Source: Escherichia coli (GTDB taxonomy: Bacteria; Pseudomonadota; Gammaproteobacteria; Enterobacterales; Enterobacteriaceae). From it: a stretch of DNA of 64,000 nucleotides. The stretch lies in NCBI RefSeq assembly GCF_030013595.1, contig NZ_CP122768.1; one strand, given 5' to 3'. Below are positions 9,009 to 34,106 of this stretch, piece after piece. Position numbers and translations under genes: made by a program. The notes beneath the pieces are model-generated. The model saw only the letters and a list, made by a program, of their open reading frames with translations, was not told where the DNA came from and searched no databases. Every line of letters begins with the position of its first letter. The stretch's first letter is position 1.

Positions 9009-9026
9009 ATCCTACATGCGTAAGAA
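9009..9026. promoter_or_regulatory. Candidate EvgA box (ATCCTACA-TG-CGTAAGAA imperfect inverted repeat) in evgA-emrK divergent region
   Basis: Near-match to the recalled EvgA consensus TTCPyTACA...TGTAPuGAA; sits in the divergent promoter region. Confidence 0.35.
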
Positions 9027-9199
9027 TTGTATTGCAAAAGCTACGGTTTAGTCCTCTGTTGTTTTTTTTGCACCTCATTTAAATTAGGCCTCCAACGTTC
9101 CTGGGACAATGTGCAACACATGCACTGTGTTTGATATGAAGAATGAATACTCTTTTCATTCAATTCATAAATTTCATCTATGCGAAATGAGAGATAATA

Positions 9200-10363
9200 G
9201 TGGAACAGATTAATTCAAATAAAAAACATTCTAACAGAAGAAAATACTTTTCTTTATTGGCGGTAGTTTTATTTATTGCGTTTTCAGGTGCCTATGCCTA
9301 TTGGTCAATGGAATTAGAAGACATGATTAGTACAGATGATGCCTATGTCACGGGGAATGCAGATCCAATTTCTGCACAAGTTTCAGGCAGCGTCACTGTC
9401 GTTAATCATAAAGATACGAACTACGTTCGACAGGGTGACATTTTAGTCTCACTGGATAAGACTGATGCCACTATCGCACTCAATAAAGCTAAAAATAATC
9501 TGGCAAATATTGTTCGGCAAACGAATAAACTGTACTTACAGGATAAACAATACAGTGCCGAAGTCGCTTCAGCACGTATTCAGTATCAACAATCTTTAGA
9601 AGATTATAACCGTCGTGTGCCTTTAGCGAAGCAGGGGGTTATTTCAAAAGAAACGCTGGAGCATACCAAAGATACGTTAATAAGTAGCAAAGCGGCATTG
9701 AATGCCGCTATCCAGGCTTATAAAGCGAATAAAGCTTTAGTAATGAACACACCATTAAACCGTCAGCCACAAGTCGTTGAAGCTGCGGATGCAACCAAAG
9801 AAGCCTGGTTGGCGCTTAAACGTACGGATATTAAGAGTCCGGTTACCGGCTATATTGCCCAGCGAAGTGTTCAGGTCGGCGAAACAGTGAGTCCCGGACA
9901 ATCGTTAATGGCTGTCGTACCGGCACGTCAAATGTGGGTTAATGCTAACTTTAAAGAAACACAACTCACGGATGTACGGATTGGTCAATCGGTCAATATT
10001 ATCAGCGATCTTTATGGTGAAAATGTTGTGTTTCATGGTCGGGTGACAGGGATCAATATGGGAACCGGCAATGCGTTCTCCTTATTACCTGCACAAAATG
10101 CGACAGGGAACTGGATCAAAATCGTTCAGCGTGTACCGGTTGAAGTTTCTCTTGATCCAAAAGAACTCATGGAACATCCCTTACGTATTGGTTTATCGAT
10201 GACAGCAACTATTGATACGAAGAACGAAGACATTGCCGAGATGCCTGAGCTGGCTTCAACCGTGACGTCCATGCCTGCTTATACCAGTAAGGCTTTAGTT
10301 ATCGATACCAGTCCGATAGAAAAAGAAATTAGCAACATTATTTCGCATAATGGACAACTTTAA
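9200..10363 (+). CDS. emrK: Multidrug efflux membrane-fusion protein EmrK (EmrA family)
   Basis: 387-aa ORF with N-terminal membrane anchor and HlyD-like coiled coil; overlaps emrY start. Confidence 0.85.
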   Translation: MEQINSNKKHSNRRKYFSLLAVVLFIAFSGAYAYWSMELEDMISTDDAYVTGNADPISAQVSGSVTVVNHKDTNYVRQGDILVSLDKTDATIALNKAKNNLANIVRQTNKLYLQDKQYSAEVASARIQYQQSLEDYNRRVPLAKQGVISKETLEHTKDTLISSKAALNAAIQAYKANKALVMNTPLNRQPQVVEAADATKEAWLALKRTDIKSPVTGYIAQRSVQVGETVSPGQSLMAVVPARQMWVNANFKETQLTDVRIGQSVNIISDLYGENVVFHGRVTGINMGTGNAFSLLPAQNATGNWIKIVQRVPVEVSLDPKELMEHPLRIGLSMTATIDTKNEDIAEMPELASTVTSMPAYTSKALVIDTSPIEKEISNIISHNGQL

Positions 10364-11901
10364 TGGCAATCACTAAATCAACTCCGGCACCATTAACCGG
10401 TGGGACGTTATGGTGCGTCACTATTGCATTGTCATTAGCGACGTTTATGCAAATGTTGGATTCCACTATTTCTAACGTCGCAATACCGACAATATCTGGC
10501 TTTCTGGGAGCATCAACAGACGAAGGCACCTGGGTTATCACTTCGTTTGGCGTAGCAAATGCCATTGCGATCCCTGTTACCGGCAGGCTGGCACAAAGAA
10601 TAGGCGAATTAAGATTATTTTTACTTTCAGTCACTTTTTTTTCGCTGTCTTCCTTAATGTGTAGCCTATCGACCAATCTTGATGTGCTGATATTTTTTAG
10701 AGTCGTTCAGGGGTTAATGGCGGGGCCGTTAATTCCACTGTCACAGAGTTTATTATTAAGGAATTATCCGCCAGAAAAAAGAACATTTGCTTTGGCATTA
10801 TGGTCAATGACCGTAATTATCGCTCCGATATGTGGGCCGATATTGGGCGGCTATATTTGCGATAACTTTAGCTGGGGTTGGATATTTTTAATCAATGTCC
10901 CTATGGGGATTATCGTCCTGACATTATGCTTAACCTTACTTAAAGGAAGAGAAACTGAGACTTCACCGGTCAAAATGAATCTACCAGGACTGACCCTGTT
11001 AGTGCTCGGTGTTGGTGGCTTGCAAATTATGCTCGATAAAGGGCGCGATCTGGATTGGTTCAACTCGAGTACAATAATAATACTAACAGTAGTGTCAGTT
11101 ATTTCTCTGATCTCTTTAGTCATTTGGGAGTCGACCTCAGAGAATCCGATTCTTGACCTCAGTTTGTTTAAGTCCCGTAATTTCACCATTGGTATTGTGA
11201 GTATCACATGCGCGTATTTATTTTACTCTGGGGCAATAGTCCTTATGCCGCAATTACTCCAGGAAACGATGGGGTATAATGCGATATGGGCCGGACTTGC
11301 CTATGCGCCCATCGGCATCATGCCGCTATTAATATCACCTTTGATAGGACGTTATGGCAACAAAATTGATATGCGGTTATTGGTGACATTTAGTTTTTTA
11401 ATGTATGCGGTTTGCTATTACTGGCGTTCTGTGACATTTATGCCAACGATTGATTTTACAGGCATCATTTTGCCACAGTTTTTCCAGGGATTCGCCGTTG
11501 CCTGTTTCTTTTTACCCTTAACAACGATTTCGTTTTCAGGGTTGCCAGATAATAAATTTGCCAATGCCTCGAGTATGAGTAATTTTTTTCGTACCTTGTC
11601 AGGATCAGTTGGTACGTCGTTGACAATGACGCTGTGGGGACGACGCGAATCGTTACACCATAGTCAGTTGACAGCAACCATCGATCAATTTAACCCCGCG
11701 TTTAATTCATCGTCACAAATTATGGATAAATACTATGGTTCGCTTTCAGGAGTTCTTAATGAAATTAATAGTGAAATAACCCAGCAGTCACTTTCTATTT
11801 CTGCAAATGAGATTTTCCGTATGGCGGCTATTGCTTTTATCTTACTTACGGTTTTGGTTTGGTTTGCGAAACCGCCGTTTACAGCGAAAGGCGTTGGGTG
11901 A
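10363..11901 (+). CDS. emrY: MFS multidrug efflux pump EmrY (EmrB family, 14 TMS)
   Basis: 512-aa polytopic membrane ORF; synteny evgAS-emrKY. Confidence 0.9.
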   Translation: MAITKSTPAPLTGGTLWCVTIALSLATFMQMLDSTISNVAIPTISGFLGASTDEGTWVITSFGVANAIAIPVTGRLAQRIGELRLFLLSVTFFSLSSLMCSLSTNLDVLIFFRVVQGLMAGPLIPLSQSLLLRNYPPEKRTFALALWSMTVIIAPICGPILGGYICDNFSWGWIFLINVPMGIIVLTLCLTLLKGRETETSPVKMNLPGLTLLVLGVGGLQIMLDKGRDLDWFNSSTIIILTVVSVISLISLVIWESTSENPILDLSLFKSRNFTIGIVSITCAYLFYSGAIVLMPQLLQETMGYNAIWAGLAYAPIGIMPLLISPLIGRYGNKIDMRLLVTFSFLMYAVCYYWRSVTFMPTIDFTGIILPQFFQGFAVACFFLPLTTISFSGLPDNKFANASSMSNFFRTLSGSVGTSLTMTLWGRRESLHHSQLTATIDQFNPAFNSSSQIMDKYYGSLSGVLNEINSEITQQSLSISANEIFRMAAIAFILLTVLVWFAKPPFTAKGVG

Positions 11902-12008
11902 TGGTAAAAGCAGGGGGTTATAGCGGGTAAGACCGGGGATCTTAAGTCTGCGCCATCGGCAGCATCGCTCACCCAGGGAAAGGATGGCGATGCTGCATTG
12001 AAAATTAA

Positions 12009-13337
12009 TTAGCGGCCTTTTGCCAGATATTGCTCCATCTCTTCTTCCGGCACCATTCCACCTCCCGTCGCCCACACCAGATGAGTGGCATTACGCAGTT
12101 GTTCTGCGCTGAAACCGTGCATCTGTTGGTAACTTACTGATGCGCACACGCGCTGAGGCCCGGCCATACCCGCCAGTGCCGAAGGTTCAAGACGAATACC
12201 TTCTTCCTGCGCCAGCCAGCCAAGCATGTCATACATGGTTTGATCGCTAAGGGTATAGAAGCCATCCAGTAGACGCTCCATTGCCCGCCCGACAAAGCCT
12301 GATGCGCGACCAACTGCAAGGCCATCCGCTGCGGTAAGGTTGTCGATACCAATATCCTGAACAGAAATCTGATCGTGTAATCCTGTATGGACGCCTAACA
12401 GCATACAAGGGGAGTGCGTTGGTTCGGCAAAAAAGCAGTGAACATGATCGCCAAATGCCAGTTTAAGCCCGAATGCGACGCCACCAGGACCACCGCCAAC
12501 ACCACACGGCAGATAGACAAACAGAGGGTTATCAGCATCGACAATACGACCTTGCTCGGCAAATTGCGCTTTAAGACGCTGGCCTGCGACGGAATACCCA
12601 AGGAACAACGTGCGGGAATTCTCGTCATCAATAAAGAAACAGTTCGGGTCAGACTGCGCTGCTTTACGTCCTTCCTCGACTGCAACACCATAATCTTGCT
12701 CATATTCCACGACCGTAACGCCATGGCTGCGCAGTTTCGCTTTTTTCCATGCCCGGGCATCAGAAGACATATGTACTGTCACCTTAAAGCCAATGCGGGC
12801 GCTCATAATGCCGATTGATAACCCCAGATTTCCGGTTGAGCCCACAGCAATGCTGTATTGGCTAAAGAACTGTTTAAACTCCGGAGAAAGCAGTTTGCTG
12901 TAGTCATCTTCAGGCGTCAGCAACCCCGCTTCCAGAGCCAGTTTTTCTGCATGTGCCAGGACTTCATAAATCCCGCCGCGTGCTTTTATGGAGCCGGAAA
13001 TGGGCAAATGGCTATCTTTTTTCAGTAGCAGTTGCCCGCTGATCGGTTGTTGATATTCCTTTTCCAGCCGTTTTTGCATAGCCGGAATGGCAACCAGTTC
13101 TGATTCAATAATCCCCCCAGTCGCAGCAGTTTCAGGAAATGCTTTTGCCAGATAGGGTGCAAAACGGGATAAGCGCGCATGGGCGTCCTGAACATCCTGT
13201 TCGGTCAGGCCAACATAAGGTAAACCTTCAGCCAATGAGGTCGTGCCAGGATTAAACCAGGTGGTTTCTTTAAGAGCAACCAGATCCTTTACCAACGGAT
13301 ACTGGGCGATGAGCGAGTTCATTTTAGCGTTTTCCAT
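12009..13337 (-). CDS. dsdA: D-serine ammonia-lyase (D-serine dehydratase, PLP-dependent)
   Basis: 442-aa [34 protein letters not shown]... with PLP-lysine motif SGSIKARGG. Confidence 0.9.
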
Positions 13338-13354
13338 AGTACGTCTCTTTGCGC

Positions 13355-13573
13355 TTAGATGATAAATGACAGCAGGAATGTGCCCGCCAGAGCGACGACT
13401 GAAGCGATAAATGTCGCGGTCGTATAGTATTTAAATGTTTCATTGAGCGTAGCGCCGCAATATTGCTTCACCAGCCAGAAAAGCGAGTCCGTAACGATCG
13501 TGCAGCCAATCGCACCTGAACCGATAGCAATCGCAATAATTTCCGGGCTGATGTCGGGATACAGCGGCAGCAC
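13355..13573 (-). pseudogene. dsdX: 3' remnant of D-serine permease gene dsdX (GntP family), truncated by the csc island
   Basis: 72-aa hydrophobic ORF immediately upstream of dsdA with no full-length permease; csc genes begin ~240 bp further on. Confidence 0.55.
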
Positions 13574-13815
13574 AATGATCCATATTTATATTTTCTTCTC
13601 CAGATTGGCGATGCCAGTTGGCATGTTTTACCTACTTGTCTACATGGTTACTCGTTGGCGAGAACAGAGGCGGAATTGGGTACAATTGTCCGGGAATTAT
13701 TGTTATTTTTTATTGTATTGCCGTGTCGGGTGATAGGGCGTCGAGAATATCGTTGGATCTCGCCAGTGACGTCTGTTTCTGCTACAGTGCCCGTTTTACG
13801 GCAAACGGCTTGGGT

Positions 13816-14811
13816 ATGGCTTCATTAAAGGATGTCGCACGCCTGGCGGGAGTGTCGATGATGACAGTCTCCCGGGTGATGCATAATGCAGAATCTGTGC
13901 GTCCTGCAACGCGTAACCGCGTATTGCAGGCAATCCAGACCCTGAATTATGTTCCTGATCTTTCCGCCCGTAAGATGCGCGCTCAAGGACGTAAGCCGTC
14001 GACTCTCGCCGTGCTGGCGCAGGACACGGCCACCACTCCTTTCTCTGTTGATATTCTGCTTGCCATTGAGCAAACCGCCAGCGAGTTTGGCTGGAATAGT
14101 TTTTTAATCAATATTTTTTCTGAAGATGACGCTGCCCGCGCGGCACGTCAGCTGCTTGCCCACCGTCCGGATGGCATTATCTATACTACAATGGGGCTGC
14201 GACATATCACGCTGCCTGAGTCTCTGTATGGTGAAAATATTGTATTGGCGAACTGTGTGGCGGATGACCCAGCGTTACCCAGTTATATCCCTGATGATTA
14301 CACTGCACAATATGAATCAACACAGCATTTGCTCGCGGCGGGCTATCGTCAACCGTTATGCTTCTGGCTACCGGAAAGTGCGTTGGCAACAGGGTATCGT
14401 CGGCAGGGATTTGAGCAGGCCTGGCGTGATGCTGGACGAGATCTGGCTGAGGTGAAACAATTTCACATGGCAACAGGTGATGATCACTACACCGATCTCG
14501 CAAGTTTACTCAATGCCCACTTCAAATCGGGCAAACCAGATTTTGATGTTCTGATATGTGGTAACGATCGCGCAGCCTTTGTGGCTTATCAGGTTCTTTT
14601 GGCGAAGGGGGTACGTATCCCGAAGGATGTCGCCGTAATGGGCTTTGATAATCTGGTTGGCGTCGGGCATCTGTTTTTACCGCCGCTGACCACAATTCAG
14701 CTTCCACATGACATTATCGGGCGGGAAGCTGCATTGCATATTATTGAAGGTCGTGAAGGGGGAAGAGTGACGCGGATCCCTTGCCCGCTGTTGATCCGTT
14801 GTTCCACCTGA
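13816..14811 (+). CDS. cscR: LacI-family sucrose operon repressor CscR
   Basis: N-terminal HTH MASLKDVARLAGVSMMTVSRVMHN... plus periplasmic-binding-protein-like sugar-binding core; start set at internal ATG 13816. Confidence 0.8.
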   Translation: MASLKDVARLAGVSMMTVSRVMHNAESVRPATRNRVLQAIQTLNYVPDLSARKMRAQGRKPSTLAVLAQDTATTPFSVDILLAIEQTASEFGWNSFLINIFSEDDAARAARQLLAHRPDGIIYTTMGLRHITLPESLYGENIVLANCVADDPALPSYIPDDYTAQYESTQHLLAAGYRQPLCFWLPESALATGYRRQGFEQAWRDAGRDLAEVKQFHMATGDDHYTDLASLLNAHFKSGKPDFDVLICGNDRAAFVAYQVLLAKGVRIPKDVAVMGFDNLVGVGHLFLPPLTTIQLPHDIIGREAALHIIEGREGGRVTRIPCPLLIRCST

Positions 14812-14818
14812 TATTATG

Positions 14819-16252
14819 TTAACCCAGTTGCCAGAGTGCTCCATGTTGCAGCACAGCCACTCCGTGGGAGGCATAGAGCGACAGTTCCCGTTCTTCTGGC
14901 TGCGGATATATTCGGCTACTCATCACCGCCTCCCCGTCGTTAATAAATACTTCCACGGATGATGTATCGATAAATATCCTTAGGGCGAGCATGTCACCCT
15001 GCGGGAGGGGAATACTACGGTAGCCATCTAAATTCTCGTGTGGGTAATACCGCCACAAAACAAGTCGCTCAGATTGGTTATCAATATACAGCCGCATTCC
15101 AGCGCCGAGCTGTAATCCGTAATGTTCGGCATCACTGTTCTTCAGCGCCCACTGCAACTGAATCTCAACTGCTTGCGCGTTTTCCTGCAAAACATATTTA
15201 TTGCTGATTGTGCGGGGAGAGATAGATTGATGCTGCTGGCGTAACGACTCAGCTTCGTGTACCGGGCGTTGTAGGAGTTTGCCATTGCTCTCTGATAGCT
15301 CGCGCGCCAGCGTCATGCAGCCTGCCCAGCCTTCACGTTTTGAGGGCATTGGCGATTCCCACATATCCATCCAGCCGATAACAATACGCCGACCATCCTT
15401 CGCTACAAAGCTTTGTGGTGCATAAAAGTCATGCCCGTTATCAAGTTCAGTAAAATGCCCGGATTGTGCAAAAAGTCGTCCTGGCGACCACATTCCGGGT
15501 ATTACGCCACTTTGAAAGCGATTTCGATAACTGTATCCCTCGGCATTCATTCCCTGCGGGGAAAACATCAGATAATGCTGATCGCCAAGGCTGAAAAAGT
15601 CCGGACATTCCCACATATAGCTTTCACCCGCATCAGCGTGGGCCAGTACGCGATCGAAAGTCCATTCACGCAATGAACTGCCGCGATAAAGCAGGATCTG
15701 CCCCGTGTTGCCTGGGTCTTTCGCCCCGACTACCATCCACCATGTGTCGGCTTCACGCCACACTTTAGGATCGCGGAAGTGCATGATGCCTTCTGGTGGA
15801 GTGAGGATCACACCCTGTTTCTCGAAATGAATACCATCCCGACTGGTAGCCAGACATTGTACTTCGCGAATTGCATCGTCATTACCTGCACCATCGAGCC
15901 AGACGTGTCCGGTGTAGATAAGTGAGAGGACACCATTGTCATCGACAGCACTACCTGAAAAACACCCGTCTTTGTCATTCTCGTCTCCTGGCGCTAGCGC
16001 AATAGGCTCATGCTGCCAGTGGATCATATCGTCGCTGGTGGCATGTCCCCAGTGCATTGGCCCCCAGTGTTCGCTCATCGGGTGATGTTGATAAAACGCG
16101 TGATAACGATCGTTAAACCAGATCAGGCCGTTTGGATCGTTCATCCACCCGGCAGGAGGCGCGAGGTGAAAATGGGGATAGAAAGTGTTACCTCGGCGCT
16201 CGTGAAGTTTTGCTAGTGCGTTTTGCGCCGCATGCAATCGAGATTGCGTCAT
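14819..16252 (-). CDS. cscA: Sucrose-6-phosphate hydrolase / invertase CscA (GH32)
   Basis: GH32 signature WMNDPNGL near N-terminus; ~477 aa. Confidence 0.85.
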   Translation of the reverse strand: MTQSRLHAAQNALAKLHERRGNTFYPHFHLAPPAGWMNDPNGLIWFNDRYHAFYQHHPMSEHWGPMHWGHATSDDMIHWQHEPIALAPGDENDKDGCFSGSAVDDNGVLSLIYTGHVWLDGAGNDDAIREVQCLATSRDGIHFEKQGVILTPPEGIMHFRDPKVWREADTWWMVVGAKDPGNTGQILLYRGSSLREWTFDRVLAHADAGESYMWECPDFFSLGDQHYLMFSPQGMNAEGYSYRNRFQSGVIPGMWSPGRLFAQSGHFTELDNGHDFYAPQSFVAKDGRRIVIGWMDMWESPMPSKREGWAGCMTLARELSESNGKLLQRPVHEAESLRQQHQSISPRTISNKYVLQENAQAVEIQLQWALKNSDAEHYGLQLGAGMRLYIDNQSERLVLWRYYPHENLDGYRSIPLPQGDMLALRIFIDTSSVEVFINDGEAVMSSRIYPQPEERELSLYASHGVAVLQHGALWQLG

Positions 16253-16285
16253 TTTAATCATCCTGGTTAAGCAAATTTGGTGAAT

Positions 16286-16298
16286 TGTTAACGTTAAC
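16286..16298. promoter_or_regulatory. Candidate CscR operator copy 1 (TGTTAACGTTAAC, palindromic core GTTAACGTTAAC)
   Basis: Perfect 12-bp palindrome, present twice in the cscA/cscKB divergent intergenic region. Confidence 0.45.
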
Positions 16299-16349
16299 TT
16301 TTATAAAAATAAAGTCCCTTACTTTCATAAATGCGATGAATATCACAAA

Positions 16350-16362
16350 TGTTAACGTTAAC
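16350..16362. promoter_or_regulatory. Candidate CscR operator copy 2 (TGTTAACGTTAAC)
   Basis: Identical 13-mer 64 bp from copy 1. Confidence 0.45.
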
Positions 16363-16467
16363 TATGACGTTTTGTGATCGAATATGCATGTTTTAGTAAA
16401 TCCATGACGATTTTGCGAAAAAGAGGTTTATCACTATGCGTAAGTCAGATGAATTTAAGGGAAAAAA

Positions 16468-17382
16468 ATGTCAGCCAAAGTATGGGTTTTAGGGGATGCG
16501 GTCGTAGATCTCTTGCCAGAATCAGACGGGCGGCTACTGCCTTGTCCTGGCGGCGCGCCAGCTAACGTTGCGGTGGGAATCGCCAGATTAGGCGGAACAA
16601 GTGGGTTTATAGGTCGGGTCGGTGATGATCCTTTTGGTGCGTTAATGCAAAGAACGCTGCTAACTGAGGGTGTCGATATCACGTATCTGAAGCAAGATGA
16701 ATGGCACCGGACATCCACGGTGCTTGTCGATCTGAATGATCAAGGAGAACGTTCATTTACGTTTATGGTCCGCCCCAGTGCCGATCTTTTTTTAGAGACG
16801 ACAGACTTGCCCTGCTGGCGACATGGCGAATGGTTACATCTCTGTTCAATTGCGTTGTCTGCCGAGCCTTCGCGTACCAGCGCATTTACTGCGATGACGG
16901 CGATCCGGCATGCCGGAGGTTTTGTCAGCTTCGATCCCAATATTCGTGAAGATCTATGGCAAGACGAGCATTTGCTCCGCTTGTGTTTGCGGCAGGCGCT
17001 ACAACTGGCGGATGTCGTCAAGCTCTCGGAAGAAGAATGGCGACTTATCAGTGGAAAAACACAGAACGATCGGGATATATGCGCGCTGGCAAAAGAGTAT
17101 GAGATCGCCATGCTGTTGGTGACTAAAGGTGCAGAAGGGGTGGTGGTCTGTTATCGAGGACAAGTTCACCATTTTGCTGGAATGTCTGTGAATTGTGTCG
17201 ATAGTACTGGGGCGGGAGATGCGTTCGTTGCCGGGTTACTCACAGGTCTGTCCTCTACGGGGTTATCTACAGATGAGAGAGAAATGCGACGAATTATTGA
17301 TCTTGCTCAACGTTGCGGAGCGCTTGCAGTAACGGCGAAAGGGGCGATGACAGCGCTGCCATGTCGACAAGAACTGGAATAG
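16468..17382 (+). CDS. cscK: Fructokinase CscK (PfkB/ribokinase family)
   Basis: 304-aa ORF MSAKVWVLGDAVVDLLPE... with C-terminal GAGDAF motif. Confidence 0.85.
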   Translation: MSAKVWVLGDAVVDLLPESDGRLLPCPGGAPANVAVGIARLGGTSGFIGRVGDDPFGALMQRTLLTEGVDITYLKQDEWHRTSTVLVDLNDQGERSFTFMVRPSADLFLETTDLPCWRHGEWLHLCSIALSAEPSRTSAFTAMTAIRHAGGFVSFDPNIREDLWQDEHLLRLCLRQALQLADVVKLSEEEWRLISGKTQNDRDICALAKEYEIAMLLVTKGAEGVVVCYRGQVHHFAGMSVNCVDSTGAGDAFVAGLLTGLSSTGLSTDEREMRRIIDLAQRCGALAVTAKGAMTALPCRQELE

Positions 17383-17453
17383 TGAGAATTAAACGGCGAA
17401 GTCGCTCTTATCTCTAAATAGGACGTGAATTTTTTAACGACAGGCAGGTAATT

Positions 17454-18701
17454 ATGGCACTGAATATTCCATTCAGAAATGCGTACTATCGTTTGGCATC
17501 CAGTTACTCATTTCTCTTTTTTATTTCCTGGTCGCTGTGGTGGTCGTTATACGCTATTTGGCTGAAAGGACATCTAGGATTAACAGGGACGGAATTAGGT
17601 ACACTTTATTCGGTCAACCAGTTTACCAGCATTCTATTTATGATGTTCTACGGCATCGTTCAGGATAAACTCGGTCTGAAGAAACCGCTCATCTGGTGTA
17701 TGAGTTTCATTCTGGTCTTGACCGGACCGTTTATGATTTACGTTTATGAACCGTTACTGCAAAGCAATTTTTCTGTAGGTCTAATTCTGGGGGCGCTCTT
17801 TTTTGGCCTGGGGTATCTGGCGGGATGCGGTTTGCTTGACAGCTTCACCGAAAAAATGGCGCGAAATTTTCATTTCGAATATGGAACAGCGCGCGCCTGG
17901 GGATCTTTTGGCTATGCTATTGGCGCGTTCTTTGCCGGTATATTTTTTAGTATCAGTCCCCATATCAACTTCTGGTTGGTCTCGCTATTTGGCGCTGTAT
18001 TTATGATGATCAACATGCGTTTTAAAGATAAGGATCACCAGTGCATAGCGGCGGATGCGGGAGGGGTAAAAAAAGAGGATTTTATCGCAGTTTTCAAGGA
18101 TCGAAACTTCTGGGTTTTCGTCATATTTATTGTGGGGACGTGGTCTTTCTATAACATTTTTGATCAACAACTCTTTCCTGTCTTTTATGCAGGTTTATTC
18201 GAATCACACGATGTAGGAACGCGCCTGTATGGTTATCTCAACTCATTCCAGGTGGTACTCGAAGCGCTGTGCATGGCGATTATTCCTTTCTTTGTGAATC
18301 GGGTAGGGCCAAAAAATGCATTACTTATCGGTGTTGTGATTATGGCGTTGCGTATCCTTTCCTGCGCGTTGTTCGTTAACCCCTGGATTATTTCATTAGT
18401 GAAGCTGTTACATGCCATTGAGGTTCCACTTTGTGTCATATCCGTCTTCAAATACAGCGTGGCAAACTTTGATAAGCGCCTGTCGTCGACGATCTTTCTG
18501 ATTGGTTTTCAAATTGCCAGTTCGCTTGGGATTGTGCTGCTTTCAACGCCGACTGGGATACTCTTTGACCACGCAGGCTACCAGACAGTTTTCTTCGCAA
18601 TTTCGGGTATTGTCTGCCTGATGTTGCTATTTGGCATTTTCTTCCTGAGTAAAAAACGCGAGCAAATAGTTATGGAAACGCCTGTACCTTCAGCAATATA
18701 G
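17454..18701 (+). CDS. cscB: Sucrose:H+ symporter CscB (LacY-like MFS)
   Basis: 415-aa 12-TMS ORF; downstream of cscK. Confidence 0.85.
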   Translation: MALNIPFRNAYYRLASSYSFLFFISWSLWWSLYAIWLKGHLGLTGTELGTLYSVNQFTSILFMMFYGIVQDKLGLKKPLIWCMSFILVLTGPFMIYVYEPLLQSNFSVGLILGALFFGLGYLAGCGLLDSFTEKMARNFHFEYGTARAWGSFGYAIGAFFAGIFFSISPHINFWLVSLFGAVFMMINMRFKDKDHQCIAADAGGVKKEDFIAVFKDRNFWVFVIFIVGTWSFYNIFDQQLFPVFYAGLFESHDVGTRLYGYLNSFQVVLEALCMAIIPFFVNRVGPKNALLIGVVIMALRILSCALFVNPWIISLVKLLHAIEVPLCVISVFKYSVANFDKRLSSTIFLIGFQIASSLGIVLLSTPTGILFDHAGYQTVFFAISGIVCLMLLFGIFFLSKKREQIVMETPVPSAI

Positions 18702-19157: not shown

Positions 19158-19230
19158 ACATCTACTTGAGGCGGCAGGGGATTGATTGGAATGGTGTTTT
19201 TTAGATGTGAAAAATATTTTACCCGCTATT

Positions 19231-19431
19231 TTACCCATTGGCGCGGCTTAAGAGCTTATTTTTGAATTCACAATGGTCACGATATAACCATCTTGCTCGC
19301 CCGTGGATAACTTTGGCTTTTGGCAGGTCGCCGGACTTAATCCGGTCATAGATGAAGGTTTTACCGAATCCAGTATCGGCCATGATGAATTTCAAATCAA
19401 CCAGTGAATCAGGCTGTAGTTCGTGTTGCAT
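19231..19431 (-). CDS. AlpA-family phage transcriptional regulator / putative excisionase
   Basis: 66-aa ORF with small HTH (…LKFIMADTGFGKTFIYDRIKSGDLPKAK…); adjacent to attL. Confidence 0.55.
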   Translation of the reverse strand: MQHELQPDSLVDLKFIMADTGFGKTFIYDRIKSGDLPKAKVIHGRARWLYRDHCEFKNKLLSRANG

Positions 19432-19473
19432 GAGTGCTATCTCCGAATAGGGAATCGAACCTGCAAATCAGGC

Positions 19474-25397: not shown

Positions 25398-26255
25398 TTA
25401 TCGTTTATTTCTTTGATGTTTCTTTGCTGACTCAGCTTGAGTGTTTCCATACCTGCGTTTACCGCTATTGTTTTTTCCTCTAGGCTTGCCTTTTTTTCGA
25501 TCTTCCCACCAGTCAGGTGCCGGGTCTGGCTCAACATGTAAAGCATCGGCAAGTCCTGATATCAAGCTGTATGACTGAACTCCATCAATGTGCTCTGACA
25601 GTGATGGGGTAACATTCTGTCTTAGTGGATCAAGAATAAAATCAATACCTTTAATTCTGGCGTGTTTGGCGGCAGGCACAAAGTCTGAGTCCCCAGCAAC
25701 AAGGACAATTACATCAACAAGTTTTTCATAAGCTAAAGTCGTGATATCCATCCCTAGCTTGATATCAACTTGTTTTTGTTTGATGTCATAGTAAAAATCA
25801 TCATTTGTCAGTTCATCCCATTTTTTCGTTCCTTTCATCAGAGCATCAAGGGAGAATGTAGTTAGTTGCCATCGCTTATTATCAACAAGATTCCCTAATC
25901 TTAAGGCTGTTTTTCGAGTTTTTCTTAACTCTTCATGCAGCTCCGTTCTCAGAATATATGATTTTTCGAGTTTGAAATTCTTGCGACCAGGCGTCTTATT
26001 GCCAGGCTCAGGAAGTGGAAGGCGTGTTTGAATGTCGAGTGGTGGACAGTCATAGAAGTAAATTCTATAAAGCTCAAGCGGTTCCCTACGTTCTTGTGAT
26101 TGACGTTTTCCATTAAGATGGGAAAGAACCATTGACCATATTACTTTCATTATGCATTGCGCAGTCAGTTCATGCTCGGCGAAGTGTTTACGATGCGTAG
26201 CATGAACACGCTGCATGAAAAAACCCGCATCAATTAAAATTGCTGCTTTCTTCAT
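25398..26255 (-). CDS. NYN-domain (LabA/PIN-like) putative nuclease, in the position lambda uses for rexAB
   Basis: 285 aa; N-terminal MKKAAILIDAGFF and VIVLVAGDSDFVPAAKHARIKGIDFIL motifs typical of NYN domains; lies between cI and the pL/N region. Confidence 0.65.
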   Translation of the reverse strand: MKKAAILIDAGFFMQRVHATHRKHFAEHELTAQCIMKVIWSMVLSHLNGKRQSQERREPLELYRIYFYDCPPLDIQTRLPLPEPGNKTPGRKNFKLEKSYILRTELHEELRKTRKTALRLGNLVDNKRWQLTTFSLDALMKGTKKWDELTNDDFYYDIKQKQVDIKLGMDITTLAYEKLVDVIVLVAGDSDFVPAAKHARIKGIDFILDPLRQNVTPSLSEHIDGVQSYSLISGLADALHVEPDPAPDWWEDRKKGKPRGKNNSGKRRYGNTQAESAKKHQRNKR

Positions 26256-27838: not shown

Positions 27839-28738
27839 ATGACAAATACAGCAAAAATACTCAACTTCTGCAGAGGTAACTTTGCCGAACAGGAGCGTAA
27901 TGTGGCAGATCTCGATGATGGTTACGCCAGACTATCAAATATGCTGCTTGAGGCTTATTCAGGCGCAGATCTGACCAAGCGACAGTTTAAAGTGCTGCTT
28001 GCCATTCTGCGTAAAACCTATGGGTGGAATAAACCAATGGACAGAATCACCGATTCTCAACTTAGCGAGATTACAAAGTTACCTGTCAAACGGTGCAATG
28101 AAGCCAAGTTAGAGCTCGTCAGAATGAATATTATCAAGCAGCAAGGCGGCATGTTTGGACCAAATAAAAACATCTCAGAATGGTGTATCCCTCAAAACGA
28201 GGGAAAATCCCCTAAAACGAGGGATAAAACATCCCTCAAATTGGGGGATTGCTATCCCTCAAAACAGGGGAACACAAAAGACACTAATACAAAAGAAAAA
28301 AGAAAAGATTATTCGTCAGAGAATTCTGGCGAATCCTCTGACCAGCCAGAAAACGATCTTTCTGTGGTTAAACCGGATGCTGCAATTCAGAGCGGCAGCA
28401 AGTGGGGAACAGCAGAAGACCTGACCGCCGCAGAGTGGATGTTTGACATGGTGAAGACCATCGCGCCATCAGCCAGAAAACCGAATTTTGCTGGGTGGGC
28501 TAACGATATCCGCCTGATGCGTGAACGTGACGGACGTAACCACCGCGATATGTGTGTGCTTTTCCGCTGGGCCTGCCAGGACAACTTCTGGTCCGGTAAC
28601 GTGCTGAGTCCGGCCAAACTCCGCGACAAGTGGACCCAGCTCGAAATCAACCGTAACAAGCAACAGGCAGGCGTGACAGCCAGCAAACCAAAACTCGACC
28701 TGACAAACACTGACTGGATTTACGGGGTGGATTTATGA
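27839..28738 (+). CDS. O: Replication initiator O (lambda-type)
   Basis: 299 aa; four iterons and an AT-rich tract embedded mid-gene; followed by P. Confidence 0.85.
   Translation: MTNTAKILNFCRGNFAEQERNVADLDDGYARLSNMLLEAYSGADLTKRQFKVLLAILRKTYGWNKPMDRITDSQLSEITKLPVKRCNEAKLELVRMNIIKQQGGMFGPNKNISEWCIPQNEGKSPKTRDKTSLKLGDCYPSKQGNTKDTNTKEKRKDYSSENSGESSDQPENDLSVVKPDAAIQSGSKWGTAEDLTAAEWMFDMVKTIAPSARKPNFAGWANDIRLMRERDGRNHRDMCVLFRWACQDNFWSGNVLSPAKLRDKWTQLEINRNKQQAGVTASKPKLDLTNTDWIYGVDL
28187..28310. other. Lambda-type origin of replication: four ~18-bp iterons (ATCCCTCAAAACGAGGGA-like) plus AT-rich tract
   Basis: Iterons at 28187, 28208, 28231 and 28254, followed by an A-rich segment 28272..28310. 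Confidence 0.75.
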
Positions 28739-29436
28739 AAAACATCGCCGCACAGATGGTTAACTTTGACCGTGAGCAGATGCGTCGGATCGCCAACAAC
28801 ATGCCGGAACAGTACGACGAAAAGCCGCAGGTACAACAGGTAGCGCAGATCATCAATGGTGTGTTCAGCCAGTTACTGGCAACTTTCCCGGCGAGCCAGG
28901 CTAACCGGGACCAGAACGAACTGAACGAAATCCGCCGCCAGTGGGTGCTGGCTTTCCGGGAAAACGGGATCACCACGATGGAACAGGTTAACGCAGGAAT
29001 GCGCGTAGCCCGTCGGCAGAATCGACCATTTCTGCCATCACCCGGGCAGTTTGTTGCATGGTGCCGGGAAGAAGCATCCGTTACCGCCGGACTGCCAAAC
29101 GTCAGCGAGCTGGTTGATATGGTTTACGAGTATTGCCGGAAGCGAGGCCTGTATCCGGATGCGGAGTCTTATCCGTGGAAATCAAACGCGCACTACTGGC
29201 TGGTTACCAACCTGTATCAGAACATGCGGGCCAATGCGCTTACTGATGCGGAATTACGCCGTAAGGCCGCAGATGAGCTTGTCCATATGACTGCGAGAAT
29301 TAACCGTGGTGAGGCGATCCCTGAACCAGTAAAACAACTTCCTGTCATGGGCGGTAGACCTCTAAATCGTGCACAGGCTCTGGCGAAGATCGCAGAAATC
29401 AAAGCTAAGTTCGGACTGAAAGGAGCAAGTGTATGA
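28735..29436 (+). CDS. P: Replication protein P (DnaB helicase loader)
   Basis: 233-aa ORF MKNIAAQMVNFDREQMRRIANNMPEQYDEKPQVQQ...; overlaps O stop. Confidence 0.85.
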   Translation: MKNIAAQMVNFDREQMRRIANNMPEQYDEKPQVQQVAQIINGVFSQLLATFPASQANRDQNELNEIRRQWVLAFRENGITTMEQVNAGMRVARRQNRPFLPSPGQFVAWCREEASVTAGLPNVSELVDMVYEYCRKRGLYPDAESYPWKSNAHYWLVTNLYQNMRANALTDAELRRKAADELVHMTARINRGEAIPEPVKQLPVMGGRPLNRAQALAKIAEIKAKFGLKGASV

Positions 29437-29723
29437 CGGGCAAAGAGGCAATTATTCATTACCTGGGGACGCATAATAGCTTCTGTGCGCCGGACGTTGC
29501 CGCGCTAACAGGCGCAACAGTAACCAGCATAAATCAGGCCGCGGCTAAAATGGCACGGGCAGGTCTTCTGGTTATCGAAGGTAAGGTCTGGCGAACGGTG
29601 TATTACCGGTTTGCTACCAGGGAAGAACGGGAAGGAAAGATGAGCACGAACCTGATTTTTAAGGAGTGTCGCCAGAGTGCCGCGATGAAACGGGTATTGG
29701 CGGTATATGGAGTTAAAAGATGA
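29433..29723 (+). CDS. ren: Ren (protection from Rex exclusion)
   Basis: 96-aa ORF MTGKEAIIHYLGTHNSFCAPDVAALTGATVTSINQAAAKMARAGLLVIEGK..., matching lambda Ren as recalled. Confidence 0.8.
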   Translation: MTGKEAIIHYLGTHNSFCAPDVAALTGATVTSINQAAAKMARAGLLVIEGKVWRTVYYRFATREEREGKMSTNLIFKECRQSAAMKRVLAVYGVKR

Positions 29724-29778
29724 CCATCTACATTACTGAGCTAATAACAGGCCTGCTGGTAATCGCAGGCCTTTTTAT

Positions 29779-30237
29779 TTGGGGGAGAGGGAAGTCATGA
29801 AAAAACTAACCTTTGAAATTCGATCTCCAGCACATCAGCAAAACGCTATTCACGCAGTACAGCAAATCCTTCCAGACCCAACCAAACCAATCGTAGTAAC
29901 CATTCAGGAGCGCAACCGCAGCTTAGACCAAAATCGGAAGCTTTGGGCTTGCCTTGGTGACGTTTCGCGTCAGGTTGAATGGCATGGTCGCTGGCTGGAT
30001 GCAGAAAGCTGGAAGTGTGTGTTTACCGCAGCATTAAAGCAGCAGGATGTTGTTCCTAACCTTGCCGGGAATGGCTTTGTGGTAATAGGCCAGTCAACCA
30101 GCAGGATGCGTGTAAACGAATTTGCGGAGCTATTAGAGCTTATACAGGCATTCGGTACAGAGCGTGGCGTTAAGTGGTCAGACGAAGCGAGACTGGCTCT
30201 GGAGTGGAAAGCGAGATGGGGAGATCGGGCTGCATGA
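29779..30237 (+). CDS. ninB: NinB (Orf-family recombination mediator)
   Basis: 152-aa ORF MKKLTFEIRSPAHQQNAIHAVQQILPDPTKPIVVTIQERNRSLDQNRKLWA... Confidence 0.85.
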   Translation: MGEREVMKKLTFEIRSPAHQQNAIHAVQQILPDPTKPIVVTIQERNRSLDQNRKLWACLGDVSRQVEWHGRWLDAESWKCVFTAALKQQDVVPNLAGNGFVVIGQSTSRMRVNEFAELLELIQAFGTERGVKWSDEARLALEWKARWGDRAA

Positions 30238-30761
30238 CTATCAAATCAAATACGCCAGCACACGACAAGGACTGCTGGCAAACGCCGCTTTGGCTTTTTG
30301 ATGCACTGGATATTGAGTTTGGATTCTGGCTGGATTCGGCAGCGAGCGACAAAAATGCTCTGTGTGCTCACTGGCTAACTGAGGCCGACGACGCGCTCAA
30401 TTCTGAGTGGGTAAGCCACGGTGCAATCTGGAATAACCCACCGTACAGCAATATCAGGCCGTGGGTGGAAAAAGCCGCTGAGCAGTGCATACAACAGCGA
30501 CAGACGGTAGTGATGCTTGTGCCAGAGGATATGTCAGTCGGATGGTTCAGCAAGGCTCTGGAGAGTGTCGACGAAGTTCGCATTATCACTGATGGACGGA
30601 TTAATTTTATCGAACCATCGACGGGGCTGGAGAAGAAGGGAAACAGCAAAGGCTCCATGCTGCTGATTTGGCGACCGTTCATCAGTCCTCGACGGATGTT
30701 TACTACCGTATCCAAAGCGGCATTGATAGCGATCGGGCAGGGCGTCAGGAGGGCGGCATGA
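30234..30761 (+). CDS. Phage DNA N6-adenine methyltransferase (Dam-like, NPPY motif), orphan
   Basis: 176 aa from internal ATG overlapping the ninB stop (ATGA); contains NPPY catalytic motif and an SAM-binding-like segment. Confidence 0.7.
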
Positions 30762-30934
30762 GGCGACAGCGACGAAGTTTCACCGACATCATCTGCGAAA
30801 ACTGCAAATACCTTCCAACGAAACGCTCCAGAAATAAACGCAAGCCAATCCCAAAAGAATCTGACGTAAAAACCTTCAACTACACGGCTCACCTGTGGGA
30901 TATCCGGTGGCTAAGACATCGTGCGAGGAAATGA
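30758..30934 (+). CDS. ninE: NinE-like protein
   Basis: [58 protein letters not shown]; start overlaps the Dam stop. Confidence 0.55.
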
Positions 30935-30984
30935 CAATGCTTTTAATTCAACCTGGATTTGGCCTTAGCATCAAAAAAGGACAC

Positions 30985-31338
30985 ATGTTTGGCGAGAAAG
31001 AGTCACAACGAAAAATGGTGTCTATCCGGTTGCCATTTATCAGTATTTATTGGCTAAACAGGGAGGCAACAAATTATTGGTATACATGCGCCAGAGCAGC
31101 ATTTAACGACCCTGACTGGTTTGTGAAAAACCACCATGCGGTTCGTCAGGCAAAGAGAAAGGCCAATACGACATACATGAAGGCGTATCGAAAAGCATGG
31201 AAAGAACACCGCGATCGATACCAGCAAGACATGGAAAAGCTTGAATCAGAAAACATGGAATTAAGACGAAAGCTTGGTGAAGCAAAACGAGACATTGATG
31301 CTTACAAGCGACTTTTTAATGGTGAAAGCCATGCTTAG
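30985..31338 (+). CDS. Hypothetical nin-region protein (start uncertain)
   Basis: ORF 30895..31338; basic coiled-coil C-terminus; overlaps ninE in another frame, so the start is unclear. Confidence 0.3.
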   Translation: MFGEKESQRKMVSIRLPFISIYWLNREATNYWYTCARAAFNDPDWFVKNHHAVRQAKRKANTTYMKAYRKAWKEHRDRYQQDMEKLESENMELRRKLGEAKRDIDAYKRLFNGESHA

Positions 31339-31507
31339 CCCATCCCAAACCCTTCAATACCAGAAAGAAAGCGTCGAGCGAGCTTTAACGTGCGCTAACT
31401 GCGGTCAGAAGCTGCATGTGCTTGAAGTTCATGTGTGTGAGCACTGCTGCGCAGAACTGATGAGCGATCCGAATAGCTCAATGTACGAGGAAGAAGACGA
31501 TGAATGA
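31331..31507 (+). CDS. ninF: NinF-like zinc-binding protein
   Basis: MLSPSQTLQYQKESVERALTCANCGQKLHVLEVHVCEHCCAELMSDPNSSMYEEEDDE. Confidence 0.6.
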   Translation: MLSPSQTLQYQKESVERALTCANCGQKLHVLEVHVCEHCCAELMSDPNSSMYEEEDDE

Positions 31508-32222
31508 GTTAATAAATGGCAATGCCATCAAAATGACAAGCATTGAAATCGCTGAGTTGGTGGGTAAGCGTCATGACAATGTGAAACGTACCATCGAAAC
31601 GCTGGCTAAAAATGGTGTTATCCGGCTTCCTCAAATTGAGGTTTCCGAAAGAATCAATAACTTAGGGTTCAATGTTCAGTACGAGCATTACGTCTTCGAA
31701 GGCGAACAAGGTAAGCGAGATAGTATTGTTGTTGTTGCCCAGTTGTCGCCAGAGTTCACCGCTCGCCTTGTTGACCGCTGGCGAGAGCTTGAAGAAACTG
31801 CGGCTAATATCCCCAAAACGCTACCAGAAGCGTTGCGCCTTGCTGCTGATCTTGCTGAGCAGAAAATGCAACTGGAAAACCAGCTCGCAATTGCCGCACC
31901 TAAAGTTGAGTTTGCCGATCGTGTTGGCGAGGCCAGCGGAATTTTGATTGGAAACTTTGCAAAGGTTGTTGGAATTGGTCAAAACAAACTGTTTGCGTGG
32001 ATGCGCGATCACAAAATCCTTATTGCTTCAGGTTCCCGGCGCAATGTGCCAATGCAGGAATATATGGATCGCGGCTATTTCACAGTGAAAGAAACAGCGG
32101 TCAATACAAATCACGGAATACAGATATCGTTCACCACAAAAATCACCGGGCGTGGCCAACAGTGGCTGACCAGAAAGCTGCTCGATAACGGAATGCTGAA
32201 AGTAACAGGGGAGGCTGCTTAA
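31500..32222 (+). CDS. Rha-family / KilA-C domain phage regulatory protein (antirepressor-like)
   Basis: 240 aa; N-terminal MNELINGNAIKMTSIEIAELVGKRHDNVKRTIETLAKNGVI (Rha-like) and a KilA-C-like C-terminal half. Confidence 0.6.
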   Translation: MNELINGNAIKMTSIEIAELVGKRHDNVKRTIETLAKNGVIRLPQIEVSERINNLGFNVQYEHYVFEGEQGKRDSIVVVAQLSPEFTARLVDRWRELEETAANIPKTLPEALRLAADLAEQKMQLENQLAIAAPKVEFADRVGEASGILIGNFAKVVGIGQNKLFAWMRDHKILIASGSRRNVPMQEYMDRGYFTVKETAVNTNHGIQISFTTKITGRGQQWLTRKLLDNGMLKVTGEAA

Positions 32223-32512
32223 TGGCCAATCTACGCAAAGAAGCACGCGGCAGAGAATGTCAGGTACGTATTTACGGCGTATGCAATGGCAATCCTGAAA
32301 CTACAGTTCTGGCACATTACCGGATGGCTGGAATTTGCGGAACGGGAATGAAGCCTGACGACCTGATCGGCGCATGGGCTTGTAGCGCGTGTCACGATGA
32401 AATCGACCGACGCACCCATAATCTCGACAACAAAGACGCCAGACTTTACCACCTCGAAGGTGTGATCAGGACGCAGGCGATACTGCTGAAGGAGGGGAAG
32501 ATTAAGCCATGA
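32222..32512 (+). CDS. DUF1364-like nin-region protein (Cys/His-rich, putative nuclease-associated)
   Basis: 96-aa ORF with CxxC...CxxCH pattern, typically found beside rusA. Confidence 0.45.
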   Translation: MANLRKEARGRECQVRIYGVCNGNPETTVLAHYRMAGICGTGMKPDDLIGAWACSACHDEIDRRTHNLDNKDARLYHLEGVIRTQAILLKEGKIKP

Positions 32513-32871
32513 ACGAATATCAGTTTGTGCTTCCTTACCCGCCGTCGGTGAATACCTACTGGCGAAGACGGGGAAGCCAATACTACATCAGCGATAAAGG
32601 CCAGAAATACCGAAAAGACGTTCAGCAAATCATTCGCCAACTCAAGTTAGACATTTTCACCAAATCACGACTCCGTATCAAAGTCATCGCAGACGTTCCA
32701 GACTCCCGCCGCCGCGACCTCGACAACATCCTGAAAGGTTTACTCGACTCCCTTATCCACGCCGGATTTGCGGAAGACGACGAGCAATTCGATGACATTC
32801 GCGTAATTCGTGGTGTGAAAGTACCAGGCGGAAGGCTTGGAATAAAAATCACCGAACTGGAGAACGTATGA
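32509..32871 (+). CDS. rusA: RusA Holliday-junction resolvase
   Basis: 120-aa ORF MNEYQFVLPYPPSVNTYWRRRG... with catalytic Asp cluster. Confidence 0.8.
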   Translation: MNEYQFVLPYPPSVNTYWRRRGSQYYISDKGQKYRKDVQQIIRQLKLDIFTKSRLRIKVIADVPDSRRRDLDNILKGLLDSLIHAGFAEDDEQFDDIRVIRGVKVPGGRLGIKITELENV

Positions 32872-33056
32872 ACGCCACAATTCAAACGATACCAGAACTT
32901 CTTATCCAGACACGAGGCAATCAGACCGAAGTGGCGAGGAGGCTTTCCTGTGCAAGAGGAACAGTGCTCAAGTACAACAGAGACAGCAAAGGCGAGCGTC
33001 ACGCAATAGTTAACGGCGTCCTGATGGTCAAACAGGGCAAGAGGGGAAGACGATGA
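32868..33056 (+). CDS. ninH: NinH-like small HTH protein
   Basis: 62 aa ...GNQTEVARRLSCARGTVLKY...; immediately precedes Q. Confidence 0.55.
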   Translation: MNATIQTIPELLIQTRGNQTEVARRLSCARGTVLKYNRDSKGERHAIVNGVLMVKQGKRGRR

Positions 33057-33676
33057 GACTCGAAAGCGTAGCTAAATTTCATTCTCCAAAAAGCCCGATG
33101 ATGAGCGACTCACCACGGGCTACAGCTTCTGACTCTCTTTCCGGTACTGATGTGATGGCTGCTATGGGGATGGCGCAATCACAAGCCGGATTCGGTATGG
33201 CTGCATTCTGCGGTAAGCATGAACTCAGCCAGAACGACAAACAAAAGGCTATCAACTATCTGATGCAATTTGCACACAAGGTATCGGGGAAATACTGTGG
33301 TGTGGCAAAGCTTGAAGGAAATACTAAGGCAAAGGTACTGCAAGTGCTCGCAACATTCGCTTATGCGGATTATTGCCGTAGTGCCGCGACGCCGGGCGCA
33401 AGATGCAGAGATTGCCACGGTACAGGCCGTGCGGTTGATATAGCCAAAACAGAGCAGTGGGGGAGAGTTGTTGAGAAAGAGTGCGGAAGATGCAAAGGTG
33501 TCGGCTATTCAAGAATGCCAGCAAGCGCCGCATATCGCGCTGTAACGATGCTAATCCCAAACCTTACTCAACCCACCTGGTCACGCACTGTTAAGCCGCT
33601 GTATGACGCTCTGGTGGTGCAATGCCACAAAGAAGAGTCAATCGCAGACAACATTTTGAATGCGGTCACACGTTAG
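33053..33676 (+). CDS. Q: Late-gene antiterminator Q (lambda-type)
   Basis: 207-aa ORF MRLESVAKFHSPKSPMMSDSPRATASDSLSGTDVMAAMGMAQSQAGFG...; followed by PR' and tR'. Confidence 0.9.
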   Translation: MRLESVAKFHSPKSPMMSDSPRATASDSLSGTDVMAAMGMAQSQAGFGMAAFCGKHELSQNDKQKAINYLMQFAHKVSGKYCGVAKLEGNTKAKVLQVLATFAYADYCRSAATPGARCRDCHGTGRAVDIAKTEQWGRVVEKECGRCKGVGYSRMPASAAYRAVTMLIPNLTQPTWSRTVKPLYDALVVQCHKEESIADNILNAVTR

Positions 33677-33950: not shown

Positions 33951-34025
33951 GGGTCAGTCGTATAAAGGTCATTACGGAAGGCTGTTAACCTTCTTATCGT
34001 GGTTCGAGTCCACGCTGTCCCGCCA
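33951..34025 (+). tRNA. Candidate phage-encoded tRNA (anticodon GTT, Asn-like); atypical D-arm and one acceptor-stem mismatch
   Basis: Manual fold: acceptor GGGTCAG/CTGTCCC, anticodon stem GAAGG/CCTTC with loop CTGTTAA, T-arm CGTGG-TTCGAGT-CCACG, 3' GCCA. Confidence 0.45.
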
Positions 34026-34030
34026 AATAT

Positions 34031-34106
34031 GCTGGTTTAGCTCCAATGGTAGAGCGGTCGCCTTGTAAGCGAATGGGTAGCGGTTCAAGTCCGTTAACCA
34101 GCACCA
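34031..34106 (+). tRNA. Candidate phage-encoded tRNA (anticodon TGT, Thr-like)
   Basis: Manual fold: acceptor GCTGGTT/AACCAGC, D-arm GCTC-CAATGGTA-GAGC, anticodon loop CTTGTAA, T-arm AGCGG-TTCAAGT-CCGTT, 3' ACCA. Confidence 0.5.

Follow-up and report, generated by a model that had tools for sequence, protein, structure and literature searches.

The nin region of a P22-like prophage in Escherichia coli carries a gene for a phage N6-adenine DNA methyltransferase (the methylase), which is the subject of this analysis. The window that was analyzed is a stretch of 64,000 nucleotides (nt) from contig NZ_CP122768.1 of assembly GCF_030013595.1, and it consists of E. coli chromosome with a prophage of approximately 39 kb. 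The open reading frame (ORF) of the methylase begins with an ATG (30234–30236), ends with a TGA stop codon (30759–30761) and has 175 codons in addition to the stop. A preliminary description, made from the sequence alone, had given these coordinates exactly; its length of 176 residues, on the other hand, counted the stop codon. The gene interlocks with its neighbors at both ends. Upstream, the stop codon of ninB and the methylase ATG share the sequence ATGA (30234–30237), an overlap that had been pointed out before and in which the upstream ORF is identified as NinB by PF05772. Downstream, the methylase stop codon and the ATG of ninE share a second ATGA (30758–30761). The slot is that of lambda ninC, as also proposed earlier, since the lambda map has ninC and ninD between ninB and ninE. 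Ahead of the ATG is a Shine-Dalgarno-like GGGGAG, which is abutted by a GATC (30223–30226) such that the last G is common to both. An upstream GTG start at 30174, which would give a protein of 195 residues, was rejected because the homologs and the hidden Markov models (HMMs) start at the ATG, and an antisense ORF of 174 residues (30368–30892) is without a family match and was treated as spurious.

The methylase is a member of a well-defined phage protein family. In Pfam, it matches PF05869, "DNA N-6-adenine-methyltransferase (Dam)", with an E-value of 1.6e-64 and a score of 217.1 bits (cutoff 28.1), and the alignment joins residues 4–169 of the 175 to profile positions 1–167 of 169. The NCBIfam equivalog TIGR01712, "phage N-6-adenine-methyltransferase", is matched from end to end (positions 1–165 of 165) with 264.3 bits against a cutoff of 97.05, so that both HMM matches are full length and lie beyond the curated cutoffs. 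A third match, to phrog_111 ("DNA methyltransferase"), has an E-value of 4.1e-87. All three bear out the methyltransferase identity proposed in the preliminary description, which the lack of a profile match would have refuted. The protein has the NPPY motif and the family-invariant residues T17, D34, N68, P70 and R122, as shown by two alignments, one of 21 and one of 59 diverse members of the family, that include the Dam proteins of phages HP1 and T1. It consists of 175 residues in a single domain, and most of the listed representatives of the family have 160–200. The family itself comprises 20,975 clusters at 50% identity (E ≤ 0.001). In a few members, the PF05869 domain is located C-terminal to a C5-cytosine DNA methylase domain (PF00145). 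The fused proteins noted in the family listing are P0125 and P0126 (515 and 663 residues) and P0121 (370 residues), one of which carries a phage replication protein O domain and may be a gene-calling fusion.

The methylase is Dam-like by name and by cited activity only, and it is outside the family of E. coli Dam. That alpha-class family, which is shared by T4 Dam, is defined by PF02086 (MethyltransfD12); the Pfam search of the methylase gave no match to PF02086, and PF05869 was the sole Pfam family found. The protein is also distinct from the MT-A70 group, which is marked by PF05063 and a DPPW motif, as its own motif is NPPY.

The structure of the methylase was modeled with AlphaFold2 using the 59 diverse family members. 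The model is one compact alpha/beta domain with a mean predicted local distance difference test score (pLDDT) of 94.2 and a predicted template modeling score (pTM) of 0.90. In a fold search, the catalytic domains of solved methylases cover 133–146 of its residues. Because nearly the whole protein is accounted for in this way, the methylase, as modeled, is one Rossmann-fold catalytic domain without a separate target-recognition domain. Three motifs can be placed on the fold. The first, W-Q-T-P, precedes helix 19–29, and we take W-x-T-P to be motif X, which contributes to the S-adenosylmethionine (AdoMet) pocket of gamma-class enzymes, by analogy with M.TaqI and the M subunits of Type I systems. 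The second, L-D-S-A-A-S, is at the end of strand beta1 and is the equivalent of motif I. The third is the NPPY of catalytic motif IV, which the preliminary description had correctly noticed; here, N68 and P70 are invariant and P69 and Y71 are present in at least 90% of the 59 diverse members. Judged from the sequence, the order WxTP (X), LDxAA (I) and NPPY (IV) is gamma-class-like. A beta-hairpin or loop, residues 121–142, includes the invariant R122 and could be guessed to be a candidate DNA-contact element.

Sequence and profile searches of the PDB found no solved relative of the methylase, and matches to SdiA and to Mediator Med31 (the latter to WCNPPYS) were rejected as chance. The best fold matches are all catalytic domains of N6-adenine methyltransferases. 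The closest is PCIF1 (CAPAM), the writer of N6,2'-O-dimethyladenosine (m6Am) in the RNA cap, and it is followed by M.BseCI, MmeI, CamA and Type I M subunits. Counted with PCIF1 among the nearest known systems is the methyltransferase domain found in DIRS retrotransposons. The DAMT enzymes of Phytophthora have a different domain and added nothing on the methylase.

Two phage enzymes of the same Pfam family are more distant relatives, namely the Dam of Haemophilus phage HP1 (orf13), which is 38% identical to the methylase, and the Dam of coliphage T1 (ST20, M.EcoT1Dam), which is 33% identical. Both align over nearly the whole protein, both have the WxTP, LDxAA and NPPYS motifs and both are orphan, early-gene enzymes. 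HP1 Dam is GATC-specific. T1 Dam differs from the methylase in having a 48-residue N-terminal extension and a 14-residue insert, and the genomic positions differ as well, the HP1 gene being at the end of an early operon and the T1 gene in a replication module. M.EcoT1Dam is called a G(m6A)TC-modifying enzyme, where m6A is N6-methyladenine, in a passage of PMC4996451. By comparison, only about 105–107 residues of E. coli Dam, T4 Dam and DpnM align with the methylase model, at 8–11% identity, and these enzymes have a target-recognition domain inserted between motifs, which the methylase is without. A GATC specificity common to the methylase and to enzymes of the E. coli Dam type is best seen as convergent.

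A nearly identical protein comes from the Shiga toxin (Stx) phage VT2-Sakai. The methylase and VT2-Sakai orf32 are equal in length and identical at 174 of 175 residues, the single difference being a conservative substitution at residue 165 (isoleucine here, methionine in VT2). The carriers differ, as the prophage here is that of a P22-like podovirus at tRNA-Arg(CCT) and not that of an Stx phage. The gene order ninB-dam-ninE is the same, and the same overlapping starts are present in the VT1 and VT2 records. For M.EcoVT2Dam, Forde et al. (PMC6602927) give 5'-GATC-3' as the known target, with reference to Radlinska & Bujnicki 2001. When all six frames of the 60,942-bp VT2-Sakai genome were scanned for the motif [DNS]PP[YFWH], orf32 was the sole ORF of at least 90 residues that contained it, and because it is the sole ORF with a motif IV, we infer that orf32 is M.EcoVT2Dam. 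VT2-Sakai orf4 was considered as an alternative methylase and rejected, as it is a DUF551 protein. The most likely target of the methylase is GATC, and when it is highly expressed there may be some relaxed, off-target activity as well.

A substrate other than GATC in DNA would require the methylase to be either a relaxed, nearly non-specific adenine methylase or a partner-dependent RNA methyltransferase. Several observations lean this way: the model is without a target-recognition domain, the nearest solved fold is an RNA-modifying enzyme, and a different Dam homolog of Stx phages, M.EcoPA8orf6770P, requires the partner PNB-2 and prefers 16S rRNA (PMC10810198). M.Btr190III, a GATC methylase of DNA according to the relevant section of PMC4996451, is also credited there with significant off-target methylation. 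Yet PCIF1 is a eukaryotic enzyme of more than 480 residues that is just 14–16% identical to the methylase, and DNA methylases rank close behind it. Furthermore, those family members with a cited specificity (T1, VT2 and M.Btr190III) are all reported to be DNA GATC methylases. The enzymes which illustrate the two alternatives are also different proteins. Non-specific Hia5, Hin1523 and Nma1821 of Mu-like prophages are, like the methylase, orphan m6A enzymes thought to counter restriction, but they belong to a different family (PMC3299994); an initial identification with them was rejected, as they are larger and Dam-related, have their DPPY near position 194 and contain a divergent region that resembles a target-recognition domain (PMC3299994). 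M.EcoGV and M.EcoPA8orf6770P, of the MT-A70 type, are likewise prophage-borne, orphan Dam homologs of Shiga toxin-producing E. coli (STEC) and can methylate GATC when overproduced; the methylase was not equated with them, and the 16S rRNA enzyme, which is similar to M.EcoGV, is not the product of the nin-region gene. On balance, a substrate other than GATC DNA is improbable, and DNA GATC remains the preferred target.

The orphan status of the methylase is solid. The gene is flanked by NinB and NinE with overlapping codons, an arrangement at odds with a Type II restriction-modification pair, and there is no restriction endonuclease among the nearby nin-region ORFs, which encode the Ren-position ORF, NinB, NinE, a phrog_1511 protein, NinF, a Rha/KilAC antirepressor-like protein, YbcO, RusA, NinH and Q. 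The earlier statement that a cognate endonuclease is not adjacent thus holds, and the best PADLOC match of the methylase is likewise to the model named "orphan methyltransferase". Among the ORFs of at least 90 residues in the window, none besides the methylase has a plausible amino-methyltransferase motif IV. In relatives, the genomic contexts are similar. The Pectobacterium gene is in a nin region, with ninF, ninG and Q directly after it, and the Yersinia gene is at the end of a leftward early operon, near int. No endonuclease is present in either context, and the methylase stands alone among early phage genes.

The position of the gene makes a prediction about when it is expressed. It is on the strand of the O-like, P-like and Q genes, approximately 3 kb past the cI/cro region, and the order is O-like, P-like, Ren-position ORF, terminator, NinB, methylase, NinE, NinF, RusA, NinH and Q. 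The intrinsic terminator is the top-ranked terminator-like site of the region (8 pairs, 6 of them G-C), and by position and sequence we take it to be the equivalent of lambda tR2. The methylase gene is between this site and Q with nin genes on either side, as expected of a lambdoid, delayed-early nin gene, and comparison with the lambda map upholds the placement in the nin region given in the preliminary description. Because the tR2-like terminator lies upstream and the overlapping codons leave no room for a private promoter, the gene should be delayed-early, dependent on N antitermination (like all that lies beyond the terminator) and silent in the repressed prophage, as judged from position. 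The data for phage Phi24B agree with this reading. Its dam coding sequence is 528 bp, as here; for the product, PMC3342100 lists 100% identity with that of VT2-Sakai and also an HK97 homolog. Expression of this gene (CM2) changed significantly on induction, and four of the five genes tested from the Phi24B screen had a lytic-cycle pattern, lom being the exception (PMC3342100).

The same literature bears on the second option of the preliminary description, in which the methylase is a lysogenic-conversion gene, expressed from the prophage and altering host expression by methylating the chromosome. The Phi24B dam product was among those detected when lysogen cultures were screened with antibodies, and in the authors' speculation it might supplement host Dam in lysogens (PMC3342100); part of the same paper cites stable lysogeny of phage 933W as requiring host Dam. 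These points are met by the location of the gene well inside the pR operon, behind the tR2-like site and with no flanking gap for a promoter, as well as by the lytic-linked Phi24B expression just described. In addition, the methylomes of STEC strains with copies of M.EcoVT2Dam revealed no attributable motif, though host Dam would mask GATC in such data (PMC6602927), and the related prophage enzyme M.Btr190III seemed to be silent in its native host, according to the same section of PMC4996451. A conversion role is very improbable, and expression in the lytic phase is the reading retained here.

The methylase gene is a widespread, already annotated and already known mosaic cassette of lambdoid phages. 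At a nucleotide identity of at least 95%, it is present in 1565 of 5426 complete E. coli genomes (approximately 29%), with up to five copies per genome. In these genomes, the NCBI Prokaryotic Genome Annotation Pipeline (PGAP) names it "phage N-6-adenine-methyltransferase", between "recombination protein NinB" and "NinE family protein". Escherichia phage E212 carries an identical nucleotide sequence, and a 1.7-kb query from ninB to ninF (29700–31400) matches hundreds of records of lambdoid, P22-like and Stx-converting phages at 95–99% identity. The annotations of VT1-Sakai and VT2-Sakai give the ninB-dam-ninE order as well, the methylase being H0041 in the former ("similar to bacteriophage 933W L0094") and orf32 in the latter ("similar to DNA methylase"). 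A literature search that joined ninB or the nin region with methyltransferase found no papers.

Sequence comparison also shows that the gene is under strong purifying selection. It differs from the VT2 allele by 7 synonymous changes and 1 non-synonymous change and from the VT1 allele by 12 and 3, respectively, which correspond to ratios of non-synonymous to synonymous substitution rates (dN/dS) of 0.04–0.07; the Pectobacterium ortholog was left out, as its dS is saturated. An inactive relic that is merely carried along with the nin region might be entertained, as many prophage methylases show no detectable motif in native methylomes. This is contradicted by the full-length ORF, the intact invariant residues of the family and the low dN/dS, and by the retention of the gene in so many genomes and in inducible, plaque-forming phages. 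A relic is barely credible, and a functional enzyme is the reading that we carry forward.

The remaining features of the window are listed in the table. The prophage is bounded by a 16-bp direct repeat, the second copy of which is inside the tRNA gene. The leftward early operon, with Ead and DUF551 ORFs, stops at the left repeat, opposite int. As int is at the tRNA end and the early operon is at the other repeat, attP of the circular phage would have the pL operon's end on one side and int on the other, unlike in lambda. A short ORF at about 19230–19440 on the minus strand, just outside the left repeat, resembles an AlpA-type excisionase gene and could be left over from a previous element at this tRNA site. 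The host part contains ORFs which, by size and order, we tentatively take to be evgS, evgA and emrKY. An NYN-domain ORF with a weak PADLOC match to HEC-09 occupies the place that rexAB has in lambda, with the N region on one side and the cI repressor gene on the other; it is a candidate moron or defense gene.

Downstream of the methylase, the 135-residue ORF between ninE and ninF has no Pfam match beyond the cutoff, and its start overlaps the ninE stop codon as ATGA. According to record annotations, some Stx phages instead have HNH endonuclease or antirepressor genes in this interval. YbcO is a putative nuclease (an HNH endonuclease according to PHROG) and RusA replaces NinG/Rap, and the rest of the nin region is likewise mosaic relative to lambda. 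The pair of tRNA genes past Q is also annotated in a lambdoid prophage of E. coli CP53.

Table. Features of the methylase locus, the prophage and its flanks, in window coordinates.
Feature	Position	Strand	Remarks
LacY-family sugar permease	17454–18701	+	PF01306, E 6e-193; left of prophage
Direct repeat, 16 bp, first copy	19451–19466		GGAATCGAACCTGCAA; bounds prophage
ORF, 284 aa, NYN ribonuclease-like	25398–26255	−	PF01936, E 6.8e-9; phrog_5783 (unknown function)
O-like gene	27839–28738	+	
P-like gene	28735–29436	+	
Intrinsic terminator	29749–29782	+	Stem AGGCCTGC...GCAGGCCT then TTTTATTT; between Ren-position ORF and ninB
ninB (Orf-family recombination mediator)	29797–30237	+	146 aa; PF05772 NinB, E 1.2e-54
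Shine-Dalgarno-like GGGGAG	30218–30223	+	Within 3' end of ninB; 10 nt ahead of methylase ATG
Phage N6-adenine DNA methyltransferase gene	30234–30761	+	175 aa; PF05869 / TIGR01712
W15-Q-T17-P18	30276–30287	+	T17 invariant, P18 nearly so; ahead of helix 19–29
L33-D34-S-A-A-S	30330–30347	+	End of strand beta1; D34 invariant; motif I equivalent (AdoMet binding)
N68-P69-P70-Y71	30435–30446	+	Catalytic motif IV; directly past strand 64–67
Beta-hairpin/loop, residues 121–142	30594–30659	+	R122 invariant; F125, N137, K139, G140 conserved
ninE	30758–30934	+	58 aa; PF05322 NinE, E 4.2e-43
ORF, 135 aa	30931–31338	+	phrog_1511 (unknown function), E 1.6e-86; between ninE and ninF
Rha/KilAC antirepressor-like	31500–32222		
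YbcO	32222–32512		
RusA	32509–32871		
NinH	32868–33056		
Q antiterminator	33053–33676	+	
tRNA-Asn(GTT)	33951–34025		Just past Q
tRNA-Thr(TGT)	34031–34106		Just past Q
Tailspike	55377–57272	+	
int	57349–58539	−	tRNA end; adjoins tailspike gene
tRNA-Arg(CCT)	58665–58739	−	
Direct repeat, 16 bp, second copy	58679–58694		GGAATCGAACCTGCAA; inside tRNA-Arg(CCT)

The methylase is best explained as a functional, AdoMet-dependent DNA N6-adenine methylase, directed at GATC and made as a delayed-early orphan enzyme that acts on replicating phage DNA. We place the probability of this explanation at approximately 85%. Here, the family, motifs, fold, selection, context, the orphan state and the close match to the VT2 gene come from the present analysis, while the GATC specificity and the lytic-cycle expression of the identical Phi24B gene come from the literature; the benefit to the phage is what we infer from these. 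In this mechanism, the methylase would be coupled in translation to ninB and ninE within the delayed-early pR operon and would be made only once N antitermination sets in after induction or infection. It would then outpace host Dam in modifying the replicating phage DNA and, incidentally, host DNA, so that progeny genomes would exit fully methylated at GATC. Full methylation could protect these genomes in the next host from methylation-sensitive restriction enzymes that cut at GATC. They may also escape the processing that under-methylated DNA undergoes, and the phage would no longer depend on the Dam status of its host. The Dam enzymes of T1, of P1 and of the T-even phages are parallels for such a role.

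Several points weigh against this explanation. The advantage of such an enzyme for a phage in E. coli, where Dam is active, is unclear. The GATC specificity is taken from a secondary citation combined with the assignment of M.EcoVT2Dam to orf32, and the 99.2% similarity given by Forde et al. fits no whole number of differences in 175 residues (PMC6602927). The promoter scan is insensitive, which makes an internal promoter possible. Finally, GATC is under-represented in the prophage: in a Markov model of positions 19000–58600, there are 109 sites observed and 198 expected, a ratio of observed to expected (O/E) of 0.55, as compared to 82 observed and 81.9 expected (O/E 1.00) in the left host flank (1–18700). 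So low a count is not obviously expected of a phage that methylates GATC itself and stands as an oddity.

An extension of the GATC methylase explanation can be imagined, in which the enzyme reads GATC using hairpin 121–142, perhaps as a dimer, and in which its specificity at lytic levels of expression reaches beyond GATC, as reported for M.Btr190III, partly shielding progeny from several adenine-sensitive systems. In the same extension, PCIF1 and the methyltransferase domain of DIRS elements would perhaps descend from the phage family. This extension is speculative and, as a whole, rather doubtful.

As a discovery, the gene has little value, since annotation pipelines already name it and a variant that differs at one residue is cited as a characterized GATC methylase. 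What it does clarify is the meaning of the label "Dam", which here denotes a family distinct from that of host Dam. In addition, the gene is predicted from its position to be expressed in the lytic phase and not during lysogeny, and claims of epigenetic lysogenic conversion are tempered accordingly. The family is also very large, and recognition of GATC by so minimal an enzyme is of biochemical interest.
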